This document shows positions 1 to 64,000 of a stretch of 64,000 nt of DNA, piece after piece. Location: assembly GCA_002269645.1 (NCBI GenBank), contig NIVC01000493.1:496001-560000 (forward strand), read 5' to 3'. This DNA is from Macrostomum lignano. Taxonomy: Eukaryota. Every line of letters begins with the position of its first letter. Position 1 is the first letter of the stretch. The notes under the pieces were generated by a model, which was given only the letters and a program-made list of their open reading frames with translations, did no database searches and had not been told where the DNA came from. The translations under genes and the position numbers were made by a program.

Positions 1-3000
1 CCACGTACCGGTAGAGCTTGGGGCCTCCCGTGGTGAACTGTACCATGCGGCAGCCAGCAGGTACCTCGTCAGTCCACTGCCCCAAACTCGAACCGCCCGG
101 AGGCTCGTACTCGCCCGGAGAGCAGCGGTATACGACCCTGGGAGGAGGAGAAGGATAAAGTGTTAAGGGGAGAAAGAGAGACAGAGACAGTTGAAAAAAT
201 TACTCACGAATCAGTATCGGCGTAAATGACGCGGGTTCCTAGACCCTCCAGAGCCTCGTAGAGTCGCAGCCGGGCGTGGGAGGTGGTGAAAACGCCAATA
301 GGTACATTAGCGTACTTGAACGCCCGCTCGCCAGCACCGCCAAATCGGGGCTTGTACTCGAGCATCATGAAGCTCTCCCCAATTGGCTCGCACGACTTGA
401 CCTTGATCGAGGGGTCGGTCAGGCGCTGCAGCCACGCCTCGTAGCTGTCCACAATCTCTGTGGAGGTCAGGTCGTCGCGCTGGCAGAATTTGCCCCAGAG
501 CCTGCAGGGAAAAATAAATTTTTTTTTGTAAGTAGAAAAACACGGCCCCCACTGCAAGTAGAAAAACTTACGAGTTTAGAAAAATCTTGGCCACAAAGCG
601 CAAGCCAGGATTCTCCTCCACCTTTTCCAGCCGGACGCCTTCGCGCTCGAAAAAGCTGGCCATGTAGGCAGCCTTGGCGTCCTCAGCCATCCCCGGCGAA
701 CCGCTAGACTCGGCTTTGAGCTTTAAAAAAGTGTTTACGTAATCTGCAAACAGGCCCGTGCGAGTCTCGGTCCAATAGGCCAGGGCATGAACTGACTGCA
801 GCTTGTAACCCAACTGCAGGGCTTTGTGGAGCTCTGGGGTCGACCACGTGCCGCGGAGCATTCTCTCAGCGTCAGTGTGTGTACACTCGCTGCTGCACTG
901 GGTCTCCATGCAGACGCGGCAGAGGCCGAAAACCAGCTTCTTGTTAATCTTGGCGGGCAGTAGCGGGATGTGGAGATTGGTTGGCGGCAGAATCGACACC
1001 TCGGCGATGCCAAAATACCGGGCCAGCTGCAGCTCATCCAGTAGATGAGGCTCGGGGTGGTGAACCGGGTGCCCGACCGGGTACTTGTCAAACTTGTTGA
1101 CAGTCGGGTAGAGCGACACCTAGGGGATAAGGATAAGATAAACTCAAACGCATGTCAACTGTGTGTGTGTACAAGTGTACAAACTTACCACATCCCGATA
1201 GCGCAGCTCTACAGTCTCGGTGGCCTCGGCGTGCGGGACAAAAGCCTCGGTACGGCCGCCAAACAGGGCATCCTCCAGGCGAATAGGCTGCTGGACTGGC
1301 GCTCCCTCGTCCTGATAGTCGTGCTCCCACAGAACACGCACATTGTATGCAGTGGAGAGCAGCCGGGTGAAGCGCTCAGTCTCCTCATAAATTGCTCGCA
1401 TTGGCTGGTTCTTGAGCGGGTGCAGCACGTCGCCGTTGGGGAAGCACTTGGGACAGCCATGGAAGAAGCAGCCATGAAACTGCAGCACTGTCCTGGTCTC
1501 TGGGTCGAAGCCGTCGACCTTACGGCCCATGGCGAAAGCCTCGCCGCCCGAGTCCGCTGTCCGCAACCGGCCGCCAAACTCGGTTGCATTTAAATGTGCC
1601 AGCCAGCACCGCGCCTTGTGCGACTGTACATCGGACCGGCGGGAAATCACCCCAAGAGTGTTGGGCTCCATAAACTTGGTGGTGAATACCGACATGGCCA
1701 AGCCCGCAATGGTGTTGGATTGAACAAATGCGTCCAGTCCGCAAATGTCCTTAATCAGGCGGGTGTACTTTAGACAGCCTTCCCGCAAAATTAACGTGTC
1801 CTGCAGGCAGTAGTCCAGGTACTCCTTATTGAAATTAAACACCTGTCCCTCCTGCTTGGCCAGCCAGTCGGCGATGGAGTCATGCTGCTTATTCTTCTTC
1901 CCGCCGTACATATCAATTGAGCAGTAGGGACCGACGTACCCCCAATTTTGAGGCTGGTTAAACACGTGCGGGAAATCTCCTTTGGTCAGTTGGGTGCCCA
2001 AACCAAGCGCCTTTGGGAATTGCGCCAGACCAATAGGGATGAAATTGAGGCTGTCCTTGAAGGTGATCTTGTCGCACTTCATGTACATTAGGCGGCTGTT
2101 CTGGAAGATCACCTGCGGCTTCTTCTTGGCCAGTCCGTTGAGTAGGGCGCCGAGCAGGAGGAATGCGTCATACGCAGAGCCATTGTGCGCAATAGCAATT
2201 GCCCCCTGCTTGAACACACTAGTCAGCCAGCAGTAAAATGCATCGATAGAGTGCGGCCCGACAGATACAAACTCTCGCATCCCACAGGCACAGTCATTGT
2301 GCGAGACACAGCTCGTGAAATCCAGCGCCAGATTGCGTCCCGCAATGCAATTGGCTGAGCTGTGTAGTCCCCCGCACGCGCTGCAGCGGGGCCTGGGGAA
2401 GAGTTTGGGACACGCCTCGCAGGAGGTGGCAGCCGTAACCAAGTGTACCCGGTGCTGCTTGCCAGAGTCCACGTACGTCTCGAAATCATAGTAAACATAC
2501 GGGGCGCTAGACTCTTTGGCTTTGGGCGGGGTGACAAAGCACTCGTGGGTGGCAGTTTCGTCGTACTGCTTGCAGACTGGGCACTTGGCGTAACCACACT
2601 GATGCTCAGGGGGCTGGCCTACTTTTAGTTCTTCTAGATAGCCACACGTGCCGCAAACGTGGACCGAATCACAGCGCGATCTGCCGGCCTTATTCTTGCG
2701 CTTGTGATTTTCTAGGCACTGAGCATTATAGCAATTTAGCCCGCAATCATGGCATCTTACATATGCGCGGTTTGCCTTACAGTTGGAGCCCGGAGTCTTG
2801 CATGTACTGCAGGCATCAGCGCACTTGTGCTTGGCGGGTTCGCTATCATAGGCCATCTCGCACTTGGGGCAGTAGTGGTGGCTGCCGAAAAACGCAGGCA
2901 GCTTGGTGACCACATTAAAGTGCTGCTCGACCAGGTGTAGGTGCAGAATCTCGGTGCCCGGCAGGTTGAAGATGCACCTGTTGGCCTCCTCTGCGCGGTA

Positions 3001-3908
3001 CACGCGTACACCAAAATCGTGCCCTGGATGCAGCCGGTTCAGGGCACGGATCGCTTCGGGCAGTGCATCCACCCCGAAAGGACCGGCCTGCGAGACGGTT
3101 TGAAGAGTCTGTGTGGGGGGTAAAATATTTCTTTTAGTATTCCCTGATACTGTGTAAAAAATCTTTTAGTATTCCATGATACTGTGTAAAAATCTTATCA
3201 GAAAATATATCTTTTAGTACTCCATGATACTGTGTAAAAATTCTTTTAGTATTCCTTATCGTAAAAATTCTTATCAGAAAATTTTAGTATTCCATGATAC
3301 TGTGTAAAAAATTCTTATCGGAAAAATACTAGAAACTTACCGTGTAGAGGCCAGCTTCGATTTGTAGCTCAGCCACCAGCTTAGTCTGCGTGGGCGAATT
3401 GGCCTTGATTGTGTGCCACACCCGCTTGGTGATGGACTTGGCCACGAATTGCAGGTAGGCGCAGGCCACGACCAGAGCGCGCAGCAGGCATCTCTTGTCC
3501 GAGTTGGTGATGCGGACATAGTGCTTGGAGAAGGCGTGCCGCTCTTCTAGATGCTTGTTCTCGAGAGCACATCCACCTCGAGGCACCCAGGCCTTTAGCA
3601 ACCGGATAGAAAAGTTGCCTGACAATACAGTGGCATCCGACTGCACAATCTTGTCAATGTGCTTAAACAACAATTCAGCCGTCATGCGGGATGCACGCAC
3701 CGGGGGAGTGTGGGCCGCTTTGAGCATATTGTCGCTCTCGAATTTCGCGGCCATAAAGTCATCACCAGCCAAATCTTGCTTGAAAACTTCGAGCATGTCA
3801 GCAAACACCTCCCGCAAATCTTCGGTGTTGGTAATATGCACCACATACTCGACACCCTTTGCCCTAAACTTGGGCAGGTCACGCTGATTATCCAGCCGGC
3901 CGTAAAAC
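1..3908 (-). CDS. polB: Protein-primed family B DNA polymerase (pPolB, Polinton/adintovirus type), multi-exon, 3' end beyond left edge
   Basis: Exons (minus) 3908-3341, 3108-1189, 1119-572, 501-208, 137-<1 join in frame through GT-AG introns 3340-3109, 1188-1120, 571-502, 207-138 (phases 0,0,2,2), giving about 1155 visible codons. The spliced protein has ExoI YYDFET, ExoII AHNGSAYD, ExoIII YCLQD, motif A YRDV|VSLYP, motif B KIFLNS|LWGKF, FTTSHARLRLY, motif C YADTDS|VVY, then LGQWTDE...FTTGGPKLY. Confidence 0.95.
3125..3330. repeat. About 33-nt degenerate tandem repeat inside pPolB intron
   Basis: Repeated TTCTTTTAGTATTCCATGATACTGTGTAAAAA / TTCTTATCAGAAAA blocks. Confidence 0.85.
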
Positions 3909-3978
3909 CTGCATGGGGGGAATGGGGGAGTGTGAGTCAGCTAGGGTCTGTGTGGGAAATGGGGGCTGGATAACTCAC

Positions 3979-4845
3979 CCGGTCCGGTAACAGATTCCGG
4001 CTGTGTTGGCGGGACAAACGCGTCTGAAAAAACACAAGGAGATAAAAAACCAGAAGAATCTGTCATTTTCCTGGCCCCAGCGTGTTTCCCCGCCCTAGCC
4101 CCAGCAATTTCTTAACAGAGTTTACTCTGCTGTCCCCGCAGCAACTCTCTGCAATTTCTTATCTGCACCCCCGCTGCAGCCTGTCGCAGCAGTCTTTGTT
4201 TACTCACCCCTGCAACTCTCTGTCGCAGCAATTTGCACCTAGCTGCAGCCTGTCTGGGTAGCGCCCCTGCCAATTTCTTATCAGTCTGTCCCCGCGCTAC
4301 ACAGTCCCAGCAACTCTCTGCCCCCACCTGGCTGTAACTTGTCTAGCCTGCCCCAACGATTCTGCAGCAATTTCTTATCTGCCGCAGCACCCTAGCAACT
4401 GTCTGTTTTTGCAGCAATTTCTTATCAGCACACCCCTCCCTGTCTAGACAACACCCCACCCCAGTCTTTGTTTACTCACCCCTGCAACTCTCTGTCGCAG
4501 CAATTTGCACCCCAGCTGCAGCCTGTCTGGACAACACCCCCCTAGCAGCAATTTCTTATCAGCACACACCCGGCTGAAACTTGTCTAGCCCTCCCCTGCA
4601 ACTCTCTGTTACAGACCCTGCCGCAGCACCCCACCCTAGCAACTCCAGTCTAGACCCCTGCAGCTGTCGCAGCAGTCTTTGTTGTTTACTCTGCGGTCCC
4701 ACAGACCCTGCAGCTGCTGCTGCTGCTCAGCCCCTACCCCCACCCTAGCAACTACAGTCTAGACAGAAATTAATTAAAACTTACCATAAAGACGTTGCCT
4801 CTTGTCAGCCAGGAAAGCAGTTGCTGCGGCGCTGCGTTTAGCCAT
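3979..4845 (-). CDS. Candidate 5' exons of pPolB (4845-4785 and 4023-3979)
   Basis: AAAATGG start at 4845, donor G|GTAAGT at 4784, acceptor TTTTCAG at 4024, donor G|GTGAGT at 3978, 70-nt intron to acceptor at 3909. Encodes MAKRSAAATAFLADKRQRLYDAFVPPTQPESVTGP but is 1 nt out of phase with the pPolB frame (see findings). Confidence 0.55.
4100..4770. repeat. Mosaic of short direct repeats in the putative first pPolB intron
   Basis: About 65-nt duplication (GTCTTTGTTTACTCACCCCTGCAACTCTCTGTCGCAGCAATTTGCACC..., near 4193 and 4463) plus recurring GCAATTTCTTATC and CTAGCAACT motifs. Confidence 0.8.
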
Positions 4846-4915
4846 TTTGCAAACAGAGAGCGTGAGAGAGCGGAGAGAGAAGGATTTATCTCTCTACCCT
4901 GGCTCTGGGGGTCTG

Positions 4916-5037
4916 TATATATACTAAAAAATCTGCTCAGCTCGCCTGTTATTGGATAAATCGCCAAAAACCAACCAAAATCATCAAAAATCACCCCAAA
5001 ATCATCACCCACCCCACCCTCCACCGGGGGTATATAA
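4916..5037. promoter_or_regulatory. Divergent promoter: TATATATA (4916-4923) for polB and TATATAA (5031-5037) for the PC4-like gene
   Basis: TATA motifs lie about 70 nt upstream of ATG 4845 (-) and about 50 nt upstream of ATG 5084 (+). Confidence 0.55.
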
Positions 5038-5083
5038 GGCGCTGCACGGCTGTCAGAGAGCTCTCTGCTGCTGCTGCTAAATC

Positions 5084-5617
5084 ATGTCTTCTATCTCTCT
5101 ATACGAAAACTTTGTGGCGCGGAAGCCCACATTTGAAACTGAACACAACTTGATTGAAATTCGGCGTCTCTACACCAACGAGGCCGGAGTGTGGAAGGAC
5201 GGCTTCCCTGCAATCTACTTGGCCGAGCCAGAGTGGAAGAAGCTCGAAGCTGCGCGCCCTGACCTGGAGGCTGCTGCCCGCCTTCACGTGAACAAGCGGG
5301 TCCTGTTGGGCAATTTCAAGGCAGTTGAAGCTTCGCGAGGGAGGATCCGTTTGCTGCGCAATTGGCTCAATCAGGACCCAAAGTTTAATTGGCGCTACAC
5401 GATCGAATTCACGCCTGAACTGTGGCGCCGGATGTTTGCCGCCCGTTTGGACAAGCTCTTCAAGCCGGCACCTGAGGCACCCCCTCCAGCCAAGCGAGTC
5501 AAGACAGACACGCCTCCGGTAGCCGGGACTGAGGTGGATGTTCTTCAGCTCATGGGTCTCAAACCCTACCAATCTCCACCCTGGGAAAATCTGTTTAACG
5601 AGGGTTGGGACTGCTAG
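5084..5617 (+). CDS. PC4/Sub1-like putative ssDNA-binding protein with a probable second degenerate PC4 repeat (177 aa)
   Basis: LIEIRRLYTNEAGVWKDGFPAIYLAEPEWKKLEAARPDLEAAAR aligns by eye, without gaps, to human PC4 [44 protein letters not shown]. A second segment, IRLLRNWLNQD...YTIEFTPELWRRM, repeats the pattern. Intronless, with upstream TATA. Confidence 0.7.
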   Translation: MSSISLYENFVARKPTFETEHNLIEIRRLYTNEAGVWKDGFPAIYLAEPEWKKLEAARPDLEAAARLHVNKRVLLGNFKAVEASRGRIRLLRNWLNQDPKFNWRYTIEFTPELWRRMFAARLDKLFKPAPEAPPPAKRVKTDTPPVAGTEVDVLQLMGLKPYQSPPWENLFNEGWDC

Positions 5618-5653
5618 TTTCCTATTGGTTCGCACCGCCTCACTCGATCCGTC

Positions 5654-5660
5654 TATATAA
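5654..5660 (+). promoter_or_regulatory. TATA box of the orphan gene
   Basis: TATATAA about 75 nt upstream of ATG 5733; ATTGG (inverted CCAAT) at about 5624. Confidence 0.45.
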
Positions 5661-5732
5661 TTAGTGTTTCCCCCTCTCCAGAGAGTCAAACCCTATCTCA
5701 GCTCTAATACTTTACTCTCTGTTGATTCTAGC

Positions 5733-6747
5733 ATGTCCCGCCGAGCTCTATCCAACCTCTGGGATAATAATCGCCCGACTGAAGAGTTAACCAGCCTCGA
5801 CGGGGATATCCCTGAACACATAGTTCCCCTAGGCACTGAAAACAACGGAAGTGATAATTGGGAGGCTGATCAATATCTAGCTTGGGCTATGTCCTATGAT
5901 AGCGACACCGAGTCTGAAGTTTTTGACCTCCCGCTGCTGGCTATCGGCGGGGTTGTGAACGGTGCCCCTGCTGCTACTGCCTCCGATTTGACTACCGCCT
6001 CAGCCGCCCTCTTTGACGTCTCTGTTGAGGAGCTGACCACAACCGGCCCTGCCTCTGCTGCGCCCGTCTCTGCTGCTGCCGCCTCTACTACGCCCGTCTC
6101 TGCTGCTGCTTCAACTACCTCCCACCGGGCCTCAATATCATCAGCCGCTACGCTCCTTCTCTTCGACGACGAGGACGAGGATATGTCTGAGGAGATCGCC
6201 GTGGTTCGTGAGCGCTTTCCTCGCATTGTGGCCTCATTTTTCCGCGGGGACATTGACTGGCTGAGGTCTCGGCATCCTGGCGGGCTGCCCTCCCAAGCTA
6301 CCTTTGTCAGAGCCTTTAATCGGGTTCTTGATACTTTGGTTGCGAGGGGTGCCGGCCTACGGGAGGTGTTGGAGGCTGAGACTCTGCACCAGGACTGGTT
6401 GATGGGGCGCAATTCGTATGCCCCCGACTCTGAGGCGTACCTGGCCGGTCCGGGAGCGCGGCCAACTGCGTGGGATGAGCCCGTCGCATGGCCCTCCAAC
6501 TGGGAGGAGCACCTTTCGTTGGTGCGCTATACAGCGTCTCTACGTCTGTGGCGGCTGGAGGACGATTTAGATTTGGTAAGATATTACATTATATACACAA
6601 CTCATCTAATCATATACCTTGCATATATTCTATCTACATTGACTGTTATAATTTCCACATTGCCAGTCATCCGACTACTGCTTCGAGAGCGTGGAGGAAG
6701 AGGCCGCGTACGAGACAGCCCTGAGGGAGCGTATGGAGATTGACTGA
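5733..6747 (+). CDS. Orphan protein of the pPolB element, 2 exons (5733-6575, 6667-6747), about 307 aa
   Basis: GC-rich coding sequence is interrupted by an AT-rich 91-nt phase-0 intron (TTG|GTAAGA...TTGCCAG|TCA). Spliced C-terminus reads LEDDLDL-SSDYCFESVEEEAAYETALRERMEID*. Acidic N-terminus, Ala/Ser/Thr linker, no recognised family. Confidence 0.65.
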
Positions 6748-7580
6748 TAAGGGTATTTCTCTTTGTACGCGGTTTGGGGAACCCAACACTGTACACTGGG
6801 TAGGTTAGAATGTGCGCTAGCTGGGGGCCTCTATGTGTGTATACACGGGGGTTAAAAGACCAATTCTGATAGCTCGCTCCTAGGGAGGAAATTGGCAGAG
6901 GGGCCGGCCCAAAAAACTGAAATGGGCTGGCCCCGGGCTCGAGTCCACCCACCTAAAATATGGAGGTCATTACAACCTAATGACCCGAAATACTTTCAAC
7001 GCAATTGTACCTATAAGAGGGTTAGGGCGGCGGCGGCGGTGGCGAAAACGGGCGGCTAAAACCTCCCTTTTGGGATTTCCCCGAACCGCTTTTGTTTAAA
7101 ATTTTTATGCACCTGCGGGTTAGACAATATTTACTCTTTAGTCGGTGTGACATTATTTACGCGTCTGTTGCACCTGGGCGTTTGCCTATAATCTGATTAT
7201 ACATGCGTGCCTGTATTATACAACTACACCTTATGCATGCCTTGTAAACCTGCTTTATACATTAACCCGATATGTATCGAAAGTACACTTTGTAAACCTG
7301 CTGTGTGTATTTCCACCTATGTAGCGCCTACAGTACCTGCTTTGTCTATTTCTGCCCATACACCTACATTGTGTGTTTTTGCTGCTCATATGCTCCAATA
7401 TGTACATTTTAATATGCAATATGCGTCATTATTCACCTACCAATATGTTTTATCTACATTTTTATGTAAATATACGCAATTTCATCTACTATAAGTAGTT
7501 TTCACTAGCCTAATATCGTTGACTACATATCGGAAGAGTGGTAGAGTGTACATATCGGGAGAGTGGTAGAGTGTACCTTT

Positions 7581-7756
7581 GGCTCGGTAGAGTGTACACT
7601 CGGGGTGCCTGCGGCTCGGTAGAGTGTACACTCGGGGTGCCTGCGGCTCGGTAGAGTGTACACTCGGGGTGCCTGCGGCATGGGCGCCTGCGGCTCGGGA
7701 GGGTGCGCTTGGGATCTGATTGATTTGGGATCTGATTGATTTGGGATCTGATTGAT
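7581..7756. repeat. Iteron-like repeats: 3 x 32 nt (7581-7676) and 3 x 16 nt (7709-7756)
   Basis: GGCTCGGTAGAGTGTACACTCGGGGTGCCTGC x3, each containing the palindrome GAGTGTACACTC; TTGGGATCTGATTGAT x3. Confidence 0.9.
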
Positions 7757-9446
7757 TTATTGGGATCTAATATCGGTAGGTGCGCCTGCGGCTGGGGAGG
7801 GTCGCCTGCGGCGCTTGGCGCCTGCGGCGCGCGCGCGCGCCGAGCGCCGATATCGATACGGGTATCGATCACCTAGTGATCGGGGCGCCAGCCAATGAGA
7901 GGCGAGGAGGGTTGACACCCACCTCACCTCCAAAATCGCGCCATTCGGGTTCATATAGTAGTCTCGGCCCCATCTTTTGTGGATGATGAAAAGACTGAAG
8001 ACCTGCAGTCCAGCCTAAAGTTGTCTGAAAGTGGGGAACCCCCAGGCCTCAAGCCGTCACTTCTTGACTTAGGCTTTTCATGGCTCTAGTTAGCTGCTGC
8101 TTTGAAACCGGCGTAGCAGTTGGGGGGGGGGTAATTACCCTGCCGCGGCACTCGAGTCCCCCCGGCTCCTCCATCTCCCTTCCTCCCTCCCTGGGCTCAG
8201 CTGGCGGGGAACAGGCAAGCGGGGATTTCTAAGAAATGGGAAGTAGAAAAAATATAGATGGGGAAAACTCGGGCCTTCGTCTCTTCCCCCTCCACCCCCC
8301 CCCCCTAACTCTAAGTCGCCCTATCTCTCTGTTCTGTTCTCGGGCAGTCAGGCGGAAAATTGAGTTGAATTCTGCTCACATATCCCAAGCCGAACCAGGT
8401 GTGCTGTGAGGGGGGTGGTGCGCCGTCCATGATTAACGGGTCTCAACGCGAGCCCTCGCTCCGAGATTTAAGCAGGAATGCCGCCGCCTGCCTGCTTGCA
8501 TAAACAGGTTTTCTGTCCCCCCCTATAATCAAGACTCGCAATTGATAACTTCCCCCGGTTTTGTTCTGCTAGCTGACTGTCTCTCCGCGACTCTCCCATT
8601 ATAGATCGGCGGCTGACCGGAACGGGATGGGCCAAAACTTTCTTCTATATGCATAATTATCACCCCGAGCCGCGGGCGGGCACAAAGGCCTGAGATTTTG
8701 CCTTTTGTTGAGAGTTTTCTTTTGGAAAAAGAGAGATATTTTCTGTATGCTCAGAAAAAGAGCAATGGGACACCTGCTTTTAGAAATATTTTAAGCTGCC
8801 TCACAAATCTATTTGAATTTTTGAGACATTGCAACTTCTTTATAAAGACACAAAACTTCACCATAAACAATAAATAAATTTTTATTGTTTATTAATCAAA
8901 TTTTATGATTTTTCAGCAAACGCAACCTCATAGACTCCAGTGTGTTTTTGATAAAGAGCTGTTATTCGAAATCGACTCAGTCCCTGCTCAAAGTCCCCCT
9001 TCTCAGCGAAGCAGCCTTCACTAATCAGAGCCAACGCCCTTATCGAATACTAGATGTTGAGCAAATGCGCAAATCTACCAGCATCTCAGAGCTTCTTCAT
9101 TATAGGCTTGCTCATCTCGCGTTCCCTCCAACCGAGCAGTGAAAATAGTCGATGGCCCTCCCCAGTGATTCGTTCCAGCATCCTCCCTGTTCTGCAGCAG
9201 CTTCATCCGCAGCTTCCCCCCCCGCCCCGCCGCCTCTGCCGCCGCCTCTGCCGTAGCTGCTCAAACCCCCATGCAATCAGCCAATCAGACAGGCCCTCCC
9301 GAATCCCTATTGATCTCCGATTCCTCAAGTATTGTAGAATTGCCCGTCTGCTTCCGTTTCGATTCTCAAATTTCTTCATCCCCAGATTGCAGCTTGTGTA
9401 ACCGGCTGTGATATACGAAAGCAGAATTTTACACGGTTTGCAGAGC

Positions 9447-11083
9447 ATGAAGTCTACTAAAGAGGTGGCAGCTTCGGCAACCGCAATGCCCAGGCGGCAT
9501 GGACTGGTATGTGCATCCCAATCCCAATGTTTCCCATGACTTATCTCAGAAATCCCAATGTTTCCCATGACCCATCTCAGAAATCTCAATGTTTCCCATG
9601 ACTTATCTCAGAAATCCCTATGTTTCCCATGACCCATCTCAGAAATCCCAACATTTCCCATGACCCAACTCTGAAGCCCCATTCTCACTCCATATTCAAA
9701 CAGGATGTCGGATCGGCTGAAGAGCCGTCAATGCGACGCCACCTCGACGACGCCGCCGAATGCCGAGGCGACGGGTCTCCCCAAGAGACCGCAAATATCT
9801 CGCAAGGCACCCGCGTCGGCAGTGTCGGCGTGCCGACCAGGCCGGAGGCGCCGTCCTCGTCTGAGAATTCGCCGACGGCGGGAGGAGGAGCCTCTGCTGA
9901 CGTCGGCAAGCTGCCACCGGCCACGGCAGCAGCGGCGGCGGCAGCGATGGCTGCTGCTGCGGCTTATTATCGAGGCGGCGCCAACAGCGGCGGCGGCGCC
10001 GGTGACGGCGGCAGCGGCGGCGGCAGCGGCGGCGGAGGAGGCGGCGACTTCTATCACACGGCGGCGCTGATGGAGCCGATGTCGACGCCGATGTTCAAGG
10101 CTGACTATCCGCCGGCAGCGCTGTACCAGGGCTGGCAGCAGCACCAGCCGCAGCAGCAGCAGCAGCAGCACCTTCAACATCAGCAGCAGCAACAGCAGCA
10201 GCATTCTTACTGGGAACTGCAGCACGGACCCAACTGGCTCTCTACTGCAGTGGCAGCCTCCGGTGCCGAGCATCATCAGCACCAGCCGCACCAGGTGCAG
10301 CAGGCGCAGCACTTCGCCTATCTGAGCCAGCCGGCCGCTGACTACCCGCTGGTCAGCCAGCAGACGCATTCCTTCCTGCCGTTGTTCAGCCACGCCGACG
10401 CGGCGGCGACCGCCACGGCGGCGGCTGCGGCAGCTGCGGCTGCGGCGGCGGCTGGCTATGCTGGCACTTCAACGTCGTCCGTCGGTGGACAGCAGCCGCC
10501 GCAGCCGCCGATGCCGCTGCAACAGCAGCCGCCAGCAGCGTCGTCCAACTCCGGCAGCAGAGACGCCGGCAACGGCAGCCGGAGCAGCGGCGGCAAGTCG
10601 AACCGGCGCTACCCCGGCCGGGCCACCTGCGACTGTCCGAACTGTCGCGAGGCCGACCGTCTGGGCCCGGCGGCGGCGGCGCAGCTGCGCAAGCGGAACC
10701 TTCACAGCTGCCACATCCCCGGCTGCGGCAAGGTGTACAACAAGACCTCGCACCTGAAGGCCCACCTTCGCTGGCACACCGGGGAGAGGCCGTTCGTGTG
10801 CAACTGGCTGTTCTGCGGCAAGCGGTTCACCCGGTCCGACGAGCTGCAGCGGCACCTGCGGACGCACACAGGTGAGAAGCGGTTTTCCTGTGCGGTGTGC
10901 CGCAAGAGATTCATGCGCTCCGATCACCTTTCAAAGCACCTGAAGACGCACAGCGAGGCCGGGGAGCAACACCCTGATGTTGAGGAGGACGAGGACGGGA
11001 ACAGCATCCCCATGGGCGGCGGCAGCGTCGGCGGCGGCGGCGAGGAAGACGCGAAGTCGGCGATTCGCCTGCAGCAGCCCTGA
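9447..11083 (+). CDS. Sp6-9: Sp6-9 (Sp8/9-like) buttonhead-box C2H2 zinc-finger transcription factor
   Basis: Btd box [15 protein letters not shown], then three fingers [12 protein letters not shown]..., [21 protein letters not shown]..., ..[11 protein letters not shown], matching the Sp8/9 signature. Probable exon 1 9447-9506 (CTG|GTATGT) spliced in phase 0 to acceptor AAACAG|GAT at 9704; exon 1 is less certain than exon 2. Confidence 0.95.
9527..9665. repeat. 31-nt tandem repeat in Sp6-9 intron
   Basis: AATGTTTCCCATGAC(T/C)(T/C)ATCTCAGAAATCCC, about 4.5 copies. Confidence 0.85.
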
Positions 11084-13683: not shown

Positions 13684-16600
13684 TCAGCCGTCAATGACGC
13701 GGTCGTGCGCCACTGGCGCGGTCAGGCCGGACACGACGCCGCTAGCCGAGTCGGCGCTCTGCATCTGCAGCAGCAGGTCCAGATCCGCTCCGGCCAGCTC
13801 GTCGATTCGCCGGCTCAGCTGACGCGTCAGCCGACGGTCGTCAACGCCGCCGCCTGCCTGTCGGGCCATGCGCAGCGGCTGCAGGCAGACGGCCAGCCGG
13901 CGGACCTTGTCCCATTTGATGTGGCCGCTAGCCAGATGGAAGCTGCCAACTTCCAGTGATTGGAGATGGGCGCGCAGCATCCTCGGATGCGGCACAGAGG
14001 CTGGCTCGGATAGCGGCTCGGACAGCAGCCGGGCTCGCAGGACGGACAGACGCTTCCTGGCCCGGCTGGCCCGGGAGTCCAACCGATGAAGCCCCGGCGC
14101 CCACTGGAGCCGCGGTCCGGACAGGCCCTCGGCCAGAGCCACGGCGGAGGCCAGGTCGCCCCTGTCAGCGCACTCGCCAGCTGTCAGCCAAAGCCTCCTG
14201 GCCATCAGGGCTCGCTGCTTGGCGCCGGAGCCGGCCGCCAGCAGTTCGGCGGTGCACCAACGCGACAGCCGGTCGCAGTGGCCGAGATAGTCGGCCAAAC
14301 CGGCGCCGGAGCCGGTGAGAAAATCCACGGGATGGCAGGCCAAGAACCGCTGCCTACTCAGCGCGCACAGGCTGGCGGCCAGGTCGGATTCAGCGCAGTC
14401 TAACAAAGACAGCGGCCGGTCCGTGGCTGGCTTGGTCAGGCTCTCGGCGAGCAGCTGGCGCGCCTGGCGCTCGCTGACGCGGTCAGGGCTGAACACGTGC
14501 AGCTGGGGCCACTGTTGTTGAATTTTAAATAATTTGGTAAGTCAGTTTGATTCAAAATCTAGAAAATAATTACTTATGCTAGTTATGTTACTGTTAGTAG
14601 CAGTAGTAAAAAAAATAATTTTCATTAACTTACCGGAAGAAACGACACGGGCCTTGGAATGATCTGAAGGAAATAATATATATTCAACAATTGATTGTGA
14701 GCAATCATCTGAACTTTAAAGAAAAAAAGCAGGTTAAAATGGTTGCACATTAAAAAAGTAAAAATTATGATCTCGCCCAGGCTCGAACTGGGGACCTTCT
14801 GTGTGTTAGACAGATGTGATAACCACTACACCACGAGATCTTAAGGAAGTATGAGTGTCGCGTGCGTATTGATATAATGTTTTCGTAACTGTTTTGTTTA
14901 AGTTACATGTTCGTTTTTATATCAAATCAAATCAAATCAAGTCAGATTATTTCAAATTCCAGTTTCATTATTCCTCAAACGTTACGTACCGTTTGTGTCT
15001 TGGCGTATGGAGCAGTGCTGCTTATGTCAACGTCGCAGTAGTGCAAATCCACGTGGATTCCACGTTGACAGTCCGAAAACAATGAAAATATTCCGTTCAT
15101 AGACGGGTATTGGTCGGCAAGTTTTGGTGCCTAAAATATTTTCGCGTTGGAATCAGTTTTAAACAGTTTATTTCTCTTTGCTTTATAGCTCGCTAGCCTA
15201 ACGCTTTTACCGTTGTAAATCACGTACTATTAGGTTTATTTTCGATACATATCGGCCAGCGACGAATTATCATTTAGTAGGTCATCTATCGAGCAAAATT
15301 AAATGGGCAGCATACCTGATCGGACAGGAACTCCATAAAGGACTTTAGAGTGGTCTGTGCTTCTTTTCTTTCTTGAAAGTCAATTTGATAAAAACCAAAA
15401 AGCCAAAACAGTAGAAGGTTTAACCCACGGTGAAGAATCAGGCTTTCCACGGTGTCGGGTTCTAGACATTTCGGAAATGTGTTGCGCATCACATTCGTTA
15501 TTACTTTAGCGAGATCCTCTGTTGTTGCGAAGTAGCGATAGCCGAAAAAATATTCCCAAACGAATCCAGTTGTAATGCTTTGTCTGAAAATTACAAGAGA
15601 AAAAAGTTATGATCTCGCCCAGGCTCGAACTGGGGACCTTCTGTGTGTTAGACAGATGTGATAACCACTACACCACGAGATCTTACAGTATGGGTGACTG
15701 TACACTGTATAATAAACCATGAGTAATACGAATAAAGTAGCACAGACTATTCAAGTAGACTTAAGACTTAAGTAGTCCTTGGTACGCATTCGTCGTCATT
15801 TTAGACTTTAGAACTTTCACAAACCTGCAAAACAGAAGAGCAGCAAGACAGTCCGGCTCAGCCGAGTGCACCAGGCCTCGCTTAAAAGTTACATTGCTAT
15901 TATTCGATTCTGATAGAGAAAACTGCTGGCTTGCATCATCGTCTAGTTTGGCGGCCACCTCCAGCTGAAGATGGCCGCTGCGTAGGCAACCTGCCAGGCT
16001 CTGGCACAGGCTCAGCGGCAGGCCTTGATTGTCAGCAAATAGTGCTTCCGCCTGTCGACAACTAGCCTCCAAGTATTCCATGCGCGCTGTTAGGGCAGCC
16101 AGATCACGCCTGTAATAATTGAAAAGCGAAGATTTTTCGATACATATCGGTAGATCGGTAAAATGAAATAAATAAACATCGCACCTGCACGATCGGGAAC
16201 CACCAGACTGCTGCCTGTTCAACTTCTCAACCTTGGCGACGTCTTTTGCTGTTAGAACCAACTGCTGTCGCAGCTGCTGCAGCCGTGTTTGAAGATCTAG
16301 AACGTCGCTCGAAGATGCCGACGCCAACGACGACTTCGCGGGCGGTGGCGGTGGTGGGGGAGGGGGTTGTTGAGCCAGAGGTGGAGATTGCTGCTTGGGC
16401 TGCGGCTGCTGAGGATGAGGAGGAGGAGGCGATGGTATCTGCTGAATCGTTGCAGCCTTTTTTGTTGTCGACAGCGGTGGCGGCGGGGGCAGCGGCGGCG
16501 GCGGCAGCGGCTGTTCCCGGCCGGCGTTGACGATGCCAAAGCAGGCCCGGAGCAGCTCGTCGCTCCAGTAGAGGTCTGGGAATCGTTCGGTAATGGCGCT

Positions 16601-24408: not shown

Positions 24409-33899
<9,491 letters not shown>

Positions 33900-37513: not shown

Positions 37514-44391
<6,878 letters not shown>

Positions 44392-60593: not shown

Positions 60594-63500
60594 ATGAGTT
60601 CCGCTAGTGAGCCACCGCGCAAGGTGAACAAGAAGCGGTCGGGTTGTTCAACAACTGGCGAAATCTGCCGCAGCGCTGGAGGTGTCGAGGTGGCCGGCTA
60701 CGGTCTGATTTTTTTCTCTGCTTTTGCCTTCGCTGGCGCCGATATGTACCGAGAGTTTGGCCGGACTGCGAAACCAAACGGTGAGCCTCACAGATGCGTC
60801 AGAAAGAGGTTTTGGCCATAGACTAATAACAATAATGACTGCAGGAGGCGACGCCCGTCCCACAATCTGCCCATTCCGCTGACTCCTGAGCACAATACTG
60901 TACTCGGGCACGCACTCATGCACACGCTCACACAGGGTGTACAGCAGCCCTGACTTTCTAACCACCAGGCATGTACACTCTCCGTGCCTTGGGGGGTTGG
61001 CCCTCATAGGTTGTAAATCGCACGACAACCCCCCCCCCCCGGCATGTTTTGTGCAGCCAGGCACTGCTCTCGGCCATAGACAATAGAGCCAATCCACAGG
61101 ACAAGTCCTTGTATCGGGAAATAGTAAAACGTTATTAAACTACAAAATTTTCAGCACCTCCATTGCGGCACATGACTGACGGGTGGCTTTCCGACTACAT
61201 GGTAAAGTACATTCATGACATGCCCATTCCGAACTGTCATAAATTCATTGTATTGATCATAAGTACAAACTGACACATTCTCAGGAGATTCCGGCCGATT
61301 TCATGGAGATCGAAATGCTCAGCCAGTATAAGAGCATTGCTGCCATTTCTGTCGGCTTTCTGATGGTCAGCCTGATCACACTGCGGTGCTCGAGCCGAAC
61401 TGTACGCTCTGGCCTGTCTTGCTTAAAGTTTCATGTCGCTCAACCCCTGGAGAGAGAGTGATCAGTCAGAGGAGGAGTGACAGTGGCAGAGTGATCAGTC
61501 AGAAGAGGAGTGACTGTGGCAGAGTGATCAGTCACGAGAGAGTGACAGTGACAGAGTGATCAGTCACGATAGGAGTGACAGTGACAGAGTCATCAGCCAG
61601 GATAGGAGTGACAGTGGCAGAGTGATCAGTCAGGATAGGAGTGACAGTGATTAGTCAGGATAGGAGTGACAGAGACGGAGTGATCGGTCAGGAAGGAGTG
61701 ACAGTGACAGAGTGAACAGTCAGAGCGGAGTGACAGTGACAAAGTGATCAGTCAGGAGGAGGAGTGACAGTGACAAAGTGATCAGTCAGGAGGAGGAGTG
61801 ACAGTGACAGAGTGATCAGTCAGGAGGAGGAGTGACAGTGACAGAGTGATCAGTCAGAGGAGGAGTGACTGTGACAGAGTGATCAGTCAGAGGAGGAGTG
61901 ACTGTGGCAGAGTGATCAGTCAGAAGAGGAGTGACAGTGACAGAGTGATTAGTCAGGATAGGAGTGACAGTGGCAGAGTGATCAGTCAGAGAGAAGTGAC
62001 AGTGACAGAGTGATCAGTCAGGAGAAGAGTGACAGTGGCAGAGTGATCAGTCACGAGAAAATTGACAGTGACAGAGTGATCAGTCAGGAGAAGAGTGACA
62101 GTGACAGTGATCAGTCACGAGATGAGTGACAGTGACAGAGTGATCAGTCAGGAAGGAGTGACAGAGACGGAGTGATCAGTCAGGAAGGAGTGACAGTGGC
62201 AGAGTGATCAGTCAGAATAGGAGTGACAGACAGTGACAGAGTGATCAGTCAGGAGAAGAGTGACAGTGACAGAGTGATCAGTCAGGAGAAGAGTGACAGT
62301 GACAGACTAATCAGTCACGAGAGGAGTGACAGTGACAGAGTGATCAGTCAGAGGAGGAGTGACTGTGGCAGAGTGATCAGTCAGGAGGAGGAGTGGCAGT
62401 GACAGAGTTTCTGACGAGAGAGTGACAGTGACAGAGTCATCAGCCAGGATAGGAGTGACAGAGACGGAGTGATCAGTCAGGAGAGCAGTGACAGAGACAG
62501 AGTGATCAGTCAGGAGAGCAGTGACAGAGACAGAGTGATCAGTCAGGAGAGCAGTGACAGAGACAGAGTGATCAGTCAGGAGAGGAGTGACAGAGACAGA
62601 GTGATCAGTCAGGAGAGGAGTGACAGTGACAGAGTGATCAGTCAGGAGAGCAGTGACAGAGACAGAGTGATCAGTCAGGAGAGCAGTGACAGAGACAGAG
62701 TGATCAGTTAGGATAGGAGTGACAGTGACAGAGTGCTCAACCGAAATGCCATATCCTGCAAGAGCAGCTGAGAACCTGTCAAGTTCCCCATTCCTCATCA
62801 GGTGCACTACCTGGCTACTACAAGCTTCACCTTGGCTGTGACAGCGGCTATCCTTGGTTACAGAGCAGCGATGTACTTTCTGGTGTTGCACTGCGGTGCT
62901 GTCTGCATGGGATATTTCTCCCAGTTCGGTGTCTGGCTGTTCATTCTGTCGGCAATGATGCTGCAAAACTCGGATTACAGCAGCGCGCTCTTTCAAGTCC
63001 TGGATCTCGAAGGTGATTACTCTCACCTGTTCTACCCAATCTCTGGCTACCTGTACTGCCGCTGCATCTCCGCTGGACTCAGCCTCAACCAAATGCTGCG
63101 GGACCAGAGACGCCAACCTGCAGATGAGGCACAGCAGCTGAGCCTGCTCCAGTTCCTTAGACTGCACCTTCCCCGAGCTTTGGCTTACGGATTTTACCTG
63201 CCCTGGCACTTTTCCGGCCCGATCCTCACCTTTGCTGACTTCTGTCGGGAGGCTGAGAGACCCGACAGGCTGGTGTGGAAGACGAAGCTGCTGCTACAGC
63301 TGGCGTGGCGAGCGACTCGCCTGTTGGTGTGGATGCTGCTGCTTCAGGTGCTGCATCATTTCCTACCTGTTGGAGCATTTCTGGAGAGCATTCGGTCTTA
63401 CGAGTCCGTGCCCTACAAGCGGCTCGTGTTTTCAATGTACCTGCATGGCCAGAACTTCATGCTGGTCTACGTGCAGCTGTACGGCTGGCCGGGTCTCGTG

Positions 63501-63812
63501 TCCAGCATTGACGGAGTCGAGCTGCCGCACTGGCCCGACTGCATCAGCCGGGTCTATACTTACAGGCAGATGTGGCGCGTGTTCGACAGGGGGCTGGCCT
63601 CCTTCATGTACAGCCACATCTACATCCCCATGGGAGGCAGTCGGCACGGCATTGTGAGACAGGTAGCTGCTGTGGCTGCCAGCTTCGCCTTTGTCTCCAT
63701 CTACCACGGCGACTCGACCAGCGTCCGCATCTGGGCTGCGCTGAACGCACTGCAGCTGCTTCTGGAGACCCTGGCCTGCGCTTTCTATGAGAGGAAGTTG
63801 AAGACGTGGCTG
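60594..63812 (+). CDS. HHAT: Hedgehog acyltransferase-like MBOAT (HHAT/rasp); continues past the right edge
   Basis: Phase-consistent exons 60594-60780, 61155-61201, 61285-61401, 62802-63812. Motifs GWLSDYM|EIPADFMEIE, YLFYP...SGPILTF.DF, MWRVFDRGL..FM..HIYIPMGGS, catalytic His in FAFVSIYHGD. Confidence 0.88.
61455..62735. repeat. About 33-nt degenerate minisatellite in HHAT intron
   Basis: GAGTGACAGTGACAGAGTGATCAGTCAGGA-based units. Confidence 0.95.
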
Positions 63813-63827
63813 GTGAGTCCGGGGATC

Positions 63828-64000
63828 AGAGTGACTGACCCAGAGTGAGCTCCGGGTGACTGACCCAGAGTGAGCTCCGAGTGACTGATCTAGAGTGAGC
63901 TCTGAGTGACTGACCCAGAGTGAGCTCCGAGTGACTGACCCCAGAGTGAGCTCCGAGTGACTGATCTAGAGTGAGCTCTGAGTGACTGACCCAGAGTGAG
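63828..64000. repeat. About 25-nt minisatellite
   Basis: GTGACTGACCCAGAGTGAGCTCCGA. Confidence 0.9.

Follow-up and report, generated by a model that had tools for sequence, protein, structure and literature searches.

The 64,000-nt stretch of the Macrostomum lignano genome analysed here, referred to as the window (contig NIVC01000493.1, positions 496,001-560,000, assembly GCA_002269645.1), opens inside a mobile element that carries a gene for a protein-primed DNA polymerase (pPolB). The element, here called segment A, is 9,478 bp long (G000:C493:494485-503962), has identical 903-bp terminal inverted repeats (TIRs) with termini 5'-ACTACTA and a 6-bp target-site duplication (TSD), and carries three genes only, for pPolB, a PC4-like protein and one orphan protein. 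The pPolB gene lies on the minus strand, starts at an ATG at 4845 and consists of seven exons and six introns coding for 1,276 aa, with its stop codon 256 bases to the left of the window edge. The features of segment A in the window are listed below; conservation percentiles derive from a profile of 89 foreign pPolB homologues, and copies are those of the window element's own family.

1..137, minus strand: pPolB exon 7, window part (profile positions 1153-1285), continuing to the stop at G000:C493:495744
138..207, minus strand: intron 6, GT..AG, 70 nt, phase 2, skipped in contigs, within Pol motif C (DTD-S), 99.7th percentile
208..501, minus strand: pPolB exon 6, from frame and profile
502..571, minus strand: intron 5, 70 nt, phase 2, skipped in contigs, within Pol motif B (LN-S-LWG), 96.7th percentile
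572..1119, minus strand: pPolB exon 5, matching PF03175 (E 7e-13)
1120..1188, minus strand: intron 4, 69 nt, phase 0, skipped in contigs, within Pol motif A (DV-VSLYP), 99.2th percentile
1189..3108, minus strand: pPolB exon 4, 640 codons, with a vOTU-like His, a Cys-rich region, Exo I-III and the VSR-type motif FHGCFFHGC; matching PF03175 (E 1.8e-17)
3109..3340, minus strand: intron 3, GT..AG, 232 nt, phase 0, internally repetitive, skipped in contigs
3341..3908, minus strand: pPolB exon 3, putative terminal-protein/vOTU region, from profile
3909..3978, minus strand: intron 2, 70 nt, GTGAGT..CAG in 23/23 copies
3979..4023, minus strand: pPolB exon 2, 45 nt, as in 15/15 traced copies
4024..4784, minus strand: intron 1, 761 nt, GT..AG in 19/19 copies reaching it, of 20
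4785..4845, minus strand: pPolB exon 1, from the ATG at 4845, from traced copies
4916..5037, no strand: back-to-back TATA-like boxes (4916-4923 and 5031-5037), from sequence
5084..5617, plus strand: PC4-like protein, 177 aa, Atlas 0.86 to PC4 clusters (a lead)
5733..6743, plus strand: orphan open reading frame (ORF), 336 aa, missing from part of the copies
7060..7962, no strand: right TIR, 903 bp, identical to the left one (G000:C493:494485-495387), terminus 5'-ACTACTA
7963..7968, plus strand: TSD CTCGGC, 6 bp

Splicing, selection and copy number of the polymerase gene

The original prediction had rebuilt a frame of about 1,155 codons across at least five GT-AG introns, those numbered 2 to 6 above, and this structure is borne out at the same positions and lengths. 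Specifically, the exons from 3908 down to 1 are free of stops over 3,467 nt (1,155 codons) and their neighbouring phases are compatible, while the five introns have GT..AG borders, GTRAGT donors and pyrimidine-rich acceptors. Splicing was checked on the contigs of four public runs (Logan) aligned to window 1-7050; three of the runs, from three studies, are probably RNA, a type guessed by the tool, and the evidence consists of assembled contigs rather than reads. The introns at 138-207, 502-571 and 1120-1188 are exactly skipped (CT..AC) in all three probable RNA runs, and those at 3109-3340 and 3909-3978 in two of the three, with a few differing letters at the joint, which suggests that these contigs come from slightly different copies. 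A single contig crosses three splice junctions. The sixth intron, 4024-4784, which the original prediction had missed, is skipped in one of the three runs (X3). The fourth run, DNA-like and with no kind on record, shows none of the joints listed (0/1). In other words, these are genuine spliceosomal introns of host type.

The Exo and Pol motifs, described at first as intact, are present: a profile of foreign homologues locates in the window pPolB what we take to be Exo I-III, VSR-type and Pol motifs. The N-terminal domains, placed by position and two residues, are probably the terminal-protein and vOTU domains described for pPolB in PMC11161782. The claim that the frame has no stop or frameshift holds downstream from 3908 and fails upstream, where the frame from the ATG at 4845 is broken near the start of exon 3, by mutation or assembly error. 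Among 23 copies tried of family alpha, the pPolB family of the window element, 15 were traceable and four of these are open end to end; the others have small indels, which may be partly assembly errors. Purifying selection, named beforehand as a check, is shown in exon 4 of 12 indel-free alpha copies, with a pN/pS of 0.077 (99 synonymous and 26 non-synonymous variants).

The genome search with pPolB, in which 95 of 177 candidates were scored so that its counts are lower bounds, returned at least 97 matches to exon 4: family alpha at 81-100% identity, about 24 of the matches at 98-100%, and a sister family, beta (62% protein identity), near 65%. Traced elements with pPolB only number 26 in alpha and 11 in beta, and the flanks of pPolB copies are unrelated. 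The window gene accordingly sits on a young multicopy mobile element. Domestication as a host polymerase gene, which had been put forward together with a test of single copy against multicopy, would be in keeping with the introns, the splicing and the purifying selection; it is refuted by the copy number and the TSDs, along with the identical TIRs and unrelated flanks, and retains a negligible probability.

As regards the other genes, the PC4-like protein matches Pfam PC4 at E 0.19 in the window and at E 6e-6 in a 44%-identical beta homologue, and is predicted to bind single-stranded DNA. The orphan ORF matches no Pfam family at the cut-off; a candidate intron within it was discarded as not needed to explain the ORF. 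The TATA-like boxes likely form a divergent promoter. Some beta polymerase segments carry PC4 together with a dUTPase, the latter seen in two copies (L130:9407-9934, L136:734-1255), and others carry neither.

Matches to integrase, capsid and ATPase were absent from the 69 pPolB- or ACTAC-type elements examined, bar one (L097, described below). A 40.6-kb alpha copy (C271:276939-317558) holds a nested integrase of an AGTAG-ended Polinton family. Nesting also occurs in the other direction, with an alpha polymerase element lying in a full-length Polinton (C1412:127475-136586). A beta polymerase element lies within a beta palindrome-like element (C1485:47664-57290).

A second element with matching ends

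The exception, L097, was the first example of segment B, an element of about 10.4 kb whose ACTAC termini are flanked by a 6-bp duplication; it lacks pPolB and codes for an rve and chromo-domain integrase with DDE motifs. Its adenain-like protease and its ATPase (Walker) are identified by motifs only, and its minor capsid protein by weak similarity only. The capsid candidate (54 sequences in the fold input) folds as a double jelly roll with a pLDDT of 90.5 and matches the double-jelly-roll capsids of PBCV-1 (best E 4.5e-18), Sputnik and mavirus, while a PDB sequence search with the capsid profile gave no match. A genome search with Pox_A32 gave no clear match despite the existence of ATPases, so that blanks of such searches carry little weight. 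As a partner of segment A, 124 PF21738 capsid matches were also considered and set aside, since the ten examined belong to or resemble AGTAG-ended full-length Polintons (six loci end-traced). Capsid relatives at 78-80% and 45-47% (P0037-P0041) were located in public data from ENA, Logan and JGI, all on short contigs, so that the lineage may exist outside the M. lignano genome. Scans of IMG/VR found no relatives.

An integrase search revealed two B subfamilies, at 97-100% and at about 81%. Gene order is the same in all 11 B loci examined, none of which has pPolB, and the B-type integrase is found on none of 37 pPolB elements. The 81% family, B-alpha, shares the terminus ACTACTA with the window element, and B-beta ends in ACTACGT or ACTACAT like pPolB beta; in other words, there are two A/B pairs, each with its own end type. 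Facing B-alpha ends span 10.2-10.7 kb in 18 of 22 pairs, the four outliers being without pPolB on inspection, and 27 B-beta pairs span 7.6-14.3 kb. In an integrase tree made without gamma rows and with one badly chosen row, B-alpha and B-beta are sisters (100/100).

The 87 elements traced in total were collected through matches to pPolB, integrase or end motifs, and some are haplotype duplicates. They comprise 37 with polymerase only, 11 with integrase and capsid only, 29 non-coding palindromes, ten others and none with both modules. All 166 element ends collected read 5'-ACTAC...GTAGT-3'; they were gathered with an ACTAC-anchored pattern, ACTAC ends having first been recognised without it. 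A 6-bp TSD is present in 83 of 87 two-ended stretches, with 70 distinct sequences. Terminal bases 8-27 are hypervariable and modular, with 40 forms among 111 alpha ends between nearly fixed flanks; in this region (window 7936-7955) the two ends of one element sometimes differ, and some forms are imperfect hairpins. The terminal 27-mers of B-alpha lie a median of two letters from the alpha ends of segment A and palindromes and 13-14 letters from beta ends; four of 18 are identical to alpha ends, and exact matches across families number zero. Beyond about base 31 the TIRs of A and B diverge, each segment having its own matched pair.

The pPolB element is thus, with good probability, the replication segment of a bipartite Polinton/Maverick, complementary gene sets being found on segments with shared termini, as in bipartite viruses. 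Under this reading, host RNA polymerase II and the spliceosome would yield a 1,276-aa protein with terminal-protein, vOTU, exonuclease, VSR and polymerase parts, the splicing itself being visible in the contigs. The terminal-protein and vOTU domains would then prime on the ACTAC ends. A slide-back start is known from protein-primed replicons, and the short ACT end repeat would suit it. Segments A and B and palindromes with the polymerase's own end type would serve as its templates, the B integrase would insert all three, leaving 6-bp duplications, and the B capsid would package the segments and allow spread. Complementation between A and B is what we infer from these parts; the formation of particles by B, predicted from its genes, is less sure.

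The split could instead reflect independent non-autonomous families, A borrowing the integrase and B the polymerase of resident elements. Full-length Polintons having both integrase and pPolB are numerous in the genome, one of them harbours a nested A copy, and the resident gamma family, AGTAG-ended, includes internal deletion derivatives without pPolB. However, AGTAG rather than ACTAC is the terminus of the resident full-length Polintons, whose pPolB is of EndoVII type, which marks them as a different system. A and B have ACTAC in common and, in each of the two pairs, a 27-nt repertoire specific to the family, and their gene sets complement each other exactly; such independence is therefore improbable. 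At least three AGTAG-ended full-length families are present (L063-L102, L184-L201), some with D5-like primase-helicase and F5/8 lectin-domain proteins, and an AGTAGT-ended mini element of 4.1 kb (L103:2307-6389) with 333-bp TIRs codes for a PLA2-integrase and for another protein that matches Adeno_PX. Gamma was also considered as a third, polymerase-less segment and rejected, most copies being about 17 kb long with their own pPolB.

Even less probable is an origin of A and B by deletion from a monopartite master of about 19 kb, followed by amplification, the master being either unassembled or existing only as a free virus. The fragmented assembly (5,269 contigs), the lower-bound searches and the 78-80% capsid relatives on short contigs leave room for such a master. 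Against it, none of the 87 elements is joined, the split recurs in two old families, and the TIRs of A and B diverge, each segment having its own matched pair. The expected span was met once, in an 18.4-kb element (L203+L204, G000:C56:643541-661960) with B-alpha ends, 1.2-kb TIRs and a TSD, in which neither module finds a match and no ORF reaches 300 aa.

Several observations nevertheless speak against the bipartite reading. A rare joined A+B form could exist, given the hit-based sampling and the partial scoring (95/177), and hundreds of full-length Polintons could supply an integrase. The end match between B-beta and A-beta is looser, with a median of five letters. The A families are 62% identical, as compared with 81-82% for the B integrase and 86-92% for its capsid, so that A has diverged more than B, contrary to a strict one-to-one history. 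Moreover, metagenomic capsid relatives of B adjoin polymerases only 23-24% like those of A, which makes descent of A and B from one monopartite element no more than a possibility. Segment B shows no splice joint, and contigs from each of the four runs cover it at low, flat depth; such contig depth appears to give no signal of B expression either way.

Non-coding palindromes of 6-9 kb, 99% perfect, with alpha ends and their own 6-bp TSD (for example L043:312-9133), are abundant. They are represented by loci L031-L048, L155-L160, L162, L221 and L222, with beta equivalents L119 and L121, and lack long ORFs; what their arm has in common with A and B is limited to short pieces. A single-arm form of 4.1 kb (L112-L114) is also present, and three beta polymerase copies are folded back into partial palindromes. 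The palindromes would be snap-back products of strand-displacement replication, by-products that likely became parasites of the A/B pair.

Age and placement of the introns

Within family alpha, introns 3-6 are retained in 20/20 traced copies and intron 2 in 23/23, with freely varying lengths: intron 3, for example, measures 138-320 nt in other alpha copies, and the intron at the corresponding beta site 60-62 nt. In the 16 beta copies, introns 3-6 occupy codon positions and phases identical to those of alpha, with exact GT..AG borders in 14/14, 14/16, 14/16 and 12/13 copies, respectively. A first impression that beta lacks intron 4 was wrong, an in-frame 81-nt intron being present there. At the shared sites, alpha and beta intron sequences cannot be aligned; together with the same positions in families at 62% protein identity, this indicates that introns 3-6 predate the alpha/beta split, in agreement with the long adaptation to the spliceosome proposed at the outset. 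The accompanying view that the introns share no obvious sequence, arguing against an introner burst, stands as well: among the 15 pairs of the six introns none is clearly above shuffles (lowest shuffle fraction 0.02), and the same applies between alpha and beta.

Introns 4, 5 and 6 interrupt Pol motifs A, B and C, respectively, all three at highly conserved sites (percentiles above), and the probability of three in six introns at such sites is about 7e-4, calculated post hoc, after the pattern had been seen. The site of intron 3 is far less conserved (25-35th percentile); the first two introns are N-terminal, outside the scored region. Of 171 foreign homologues, 110 reach the C-terminus, some perhaps as spliced gene models, and 61 end early, seven of them at most four profile positions from motif B and two at motif A. 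For four of these, cluster members on other contigs end at the same residue. The read-through endings (NSF-CK, NSLW-stop, NSFW-VS and LWG-stop) fit entry into GTAAG or GTRAGT at different bases, and such variety within motif B would be more in keeping with gain on several occasions than with a single old intron. Single ORFs of 1,145-1,350 codons are directly visible at eight metagenome loci and in one resident Polinton.

A possibility is that the motif introns were gained or retained in a targeted manner at sites cut by putative homing-type nucleases: an intron would destroy a conserved DNA cut site while leaving the protein unchanged, and would thus be selected. Nuclease domains, VSR-type and EndoVII-type, do occur in these polymerases, by sequence. 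This putative shield is the leading guess, held tentatively. It is ranked ahead of two other explanations taken together, namely survivor bias, in which imprecise loss from a motif is lethal, and host splicing control of polymerase supply, which jointly remain a serious though not favoured contender. The latter are in line with the retention of all introns in every traced copy and with the three introns outside motifs; the foreign endings at several bases of motif B, which seem to reflect repeated gain, speak against them. Those same three introns tell against targeted gain, as do the post hoc nature of the motif statistic and the fact that the truncated homologues were judged from protein ends rather than from their DNA.

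Relation to known elements and viruses

Segments A and B share with the Polintons/Mavericks of animals (adintoviruses, Eupolintoviridae) the pPolB (PF03175) with the VSR-type motif FHGCFFHGC, long TIRs and a 6-bp TSD, and together they carry the rve integrase, double-jelly-roll capsid, protease and ATPase of these elements. In contrast to them, the genes are split over two separately integrated elements, A alone having neither integrase nor capsid genes; the ends are 5'-ACTAC, as opposed to (AG)3 or (AGT)2 in vertebrate Mavericks, and termini of the 5'-AG...CT-3' type are not those of segment A; and six spliced introns are present, as against intronless intact elements. The element would thus seem to work like a Polinton spread over two molecules; taken singly, it departs from three defining features.

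Bidnaviruses have a parvovirus-like capsid and a single-stranded genome, and lack an integrase. Like the present system, they have a protein-primed polymerase and two segments whose termini match; the differences lie in the double-jelly-roll capsid, rve integrase and chromosomal copies found here. PMC8502044 describes them as bipartite, with matching segment termini and a PolB related to that of Alpha adintoviruses.

The motif-splitting introns find a partial parallel in inteins, whose sites in PolB may match motifs A, B and C. These too are intervening sequences clustered in the catalytic domain, whereas here they are short introns with no coded nuclease; sites a-c of the family B polymerase catalytic domain are given as intein sites in PMC4760082. 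Introner-bearing Polinton-like elements of dinoflagellates also have spliceosomal introns inside Maverick/Polinton-like elements, which, according to 10.1101/2025.03.18.643946, are young introner copies and mostly gained after integration; the window introns are instead mutually unrelated, old, present in all copies and, in three cases, placed in motifs.

PMC8097293 reports no introns in intact Mavericks, and PMC10748475, which treats VSR-type pPolB2, kept pPolB matches of at least 650 aa with an integrase within 20 kb, a filter that would miss the window gene, with its largest exon of 640 aa and no integrase. In 10.1101/2024.01.15.575659, ten nematode loci with pPolB and TIRs and no integrase are treated as remnants. 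A bipartite Polinton, a Polinton of this host and motif-splitting spliceosomal introns were not found in the accessible literature searched. Polintons have been defined and mined as single intronless polymerase/integrase units; this lineage fails both filters, so that such elements are probably being missed.

If the bipartite reading is true, a laboratory animal offers a natural transition from a monopartite to a segmented state in a double-stranded DNA virus-like element. The recurrence of introns in motifs A, B and C would, in addition, open to direct test the long-standing question of how and why spliceosomal introns come to occupy particular sites. The furthest-reaching version is rather unlikely: an animal virus with a segmented double-stranded DNA genome, active and integrating, in two old lineages that each have a polymerase segment and an integrase/capsid segment and are separated by a variable 27-base end code, with palindrome parasites and with nuclease-shield introns recurring in unrelated Polintons.

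Outside the element, a host Sp/KLF-like exon with three C2H2 zinc fingers lies at 9602-11083, about 1.6 kb from its right end. Elsewhere in the window there are a RasGEF-like exon (13684-14541), LTR-type integrase fragments (30027-31862), a CUT-domain exon (42126-42998) and an MBOAT ORF (62772-63848).

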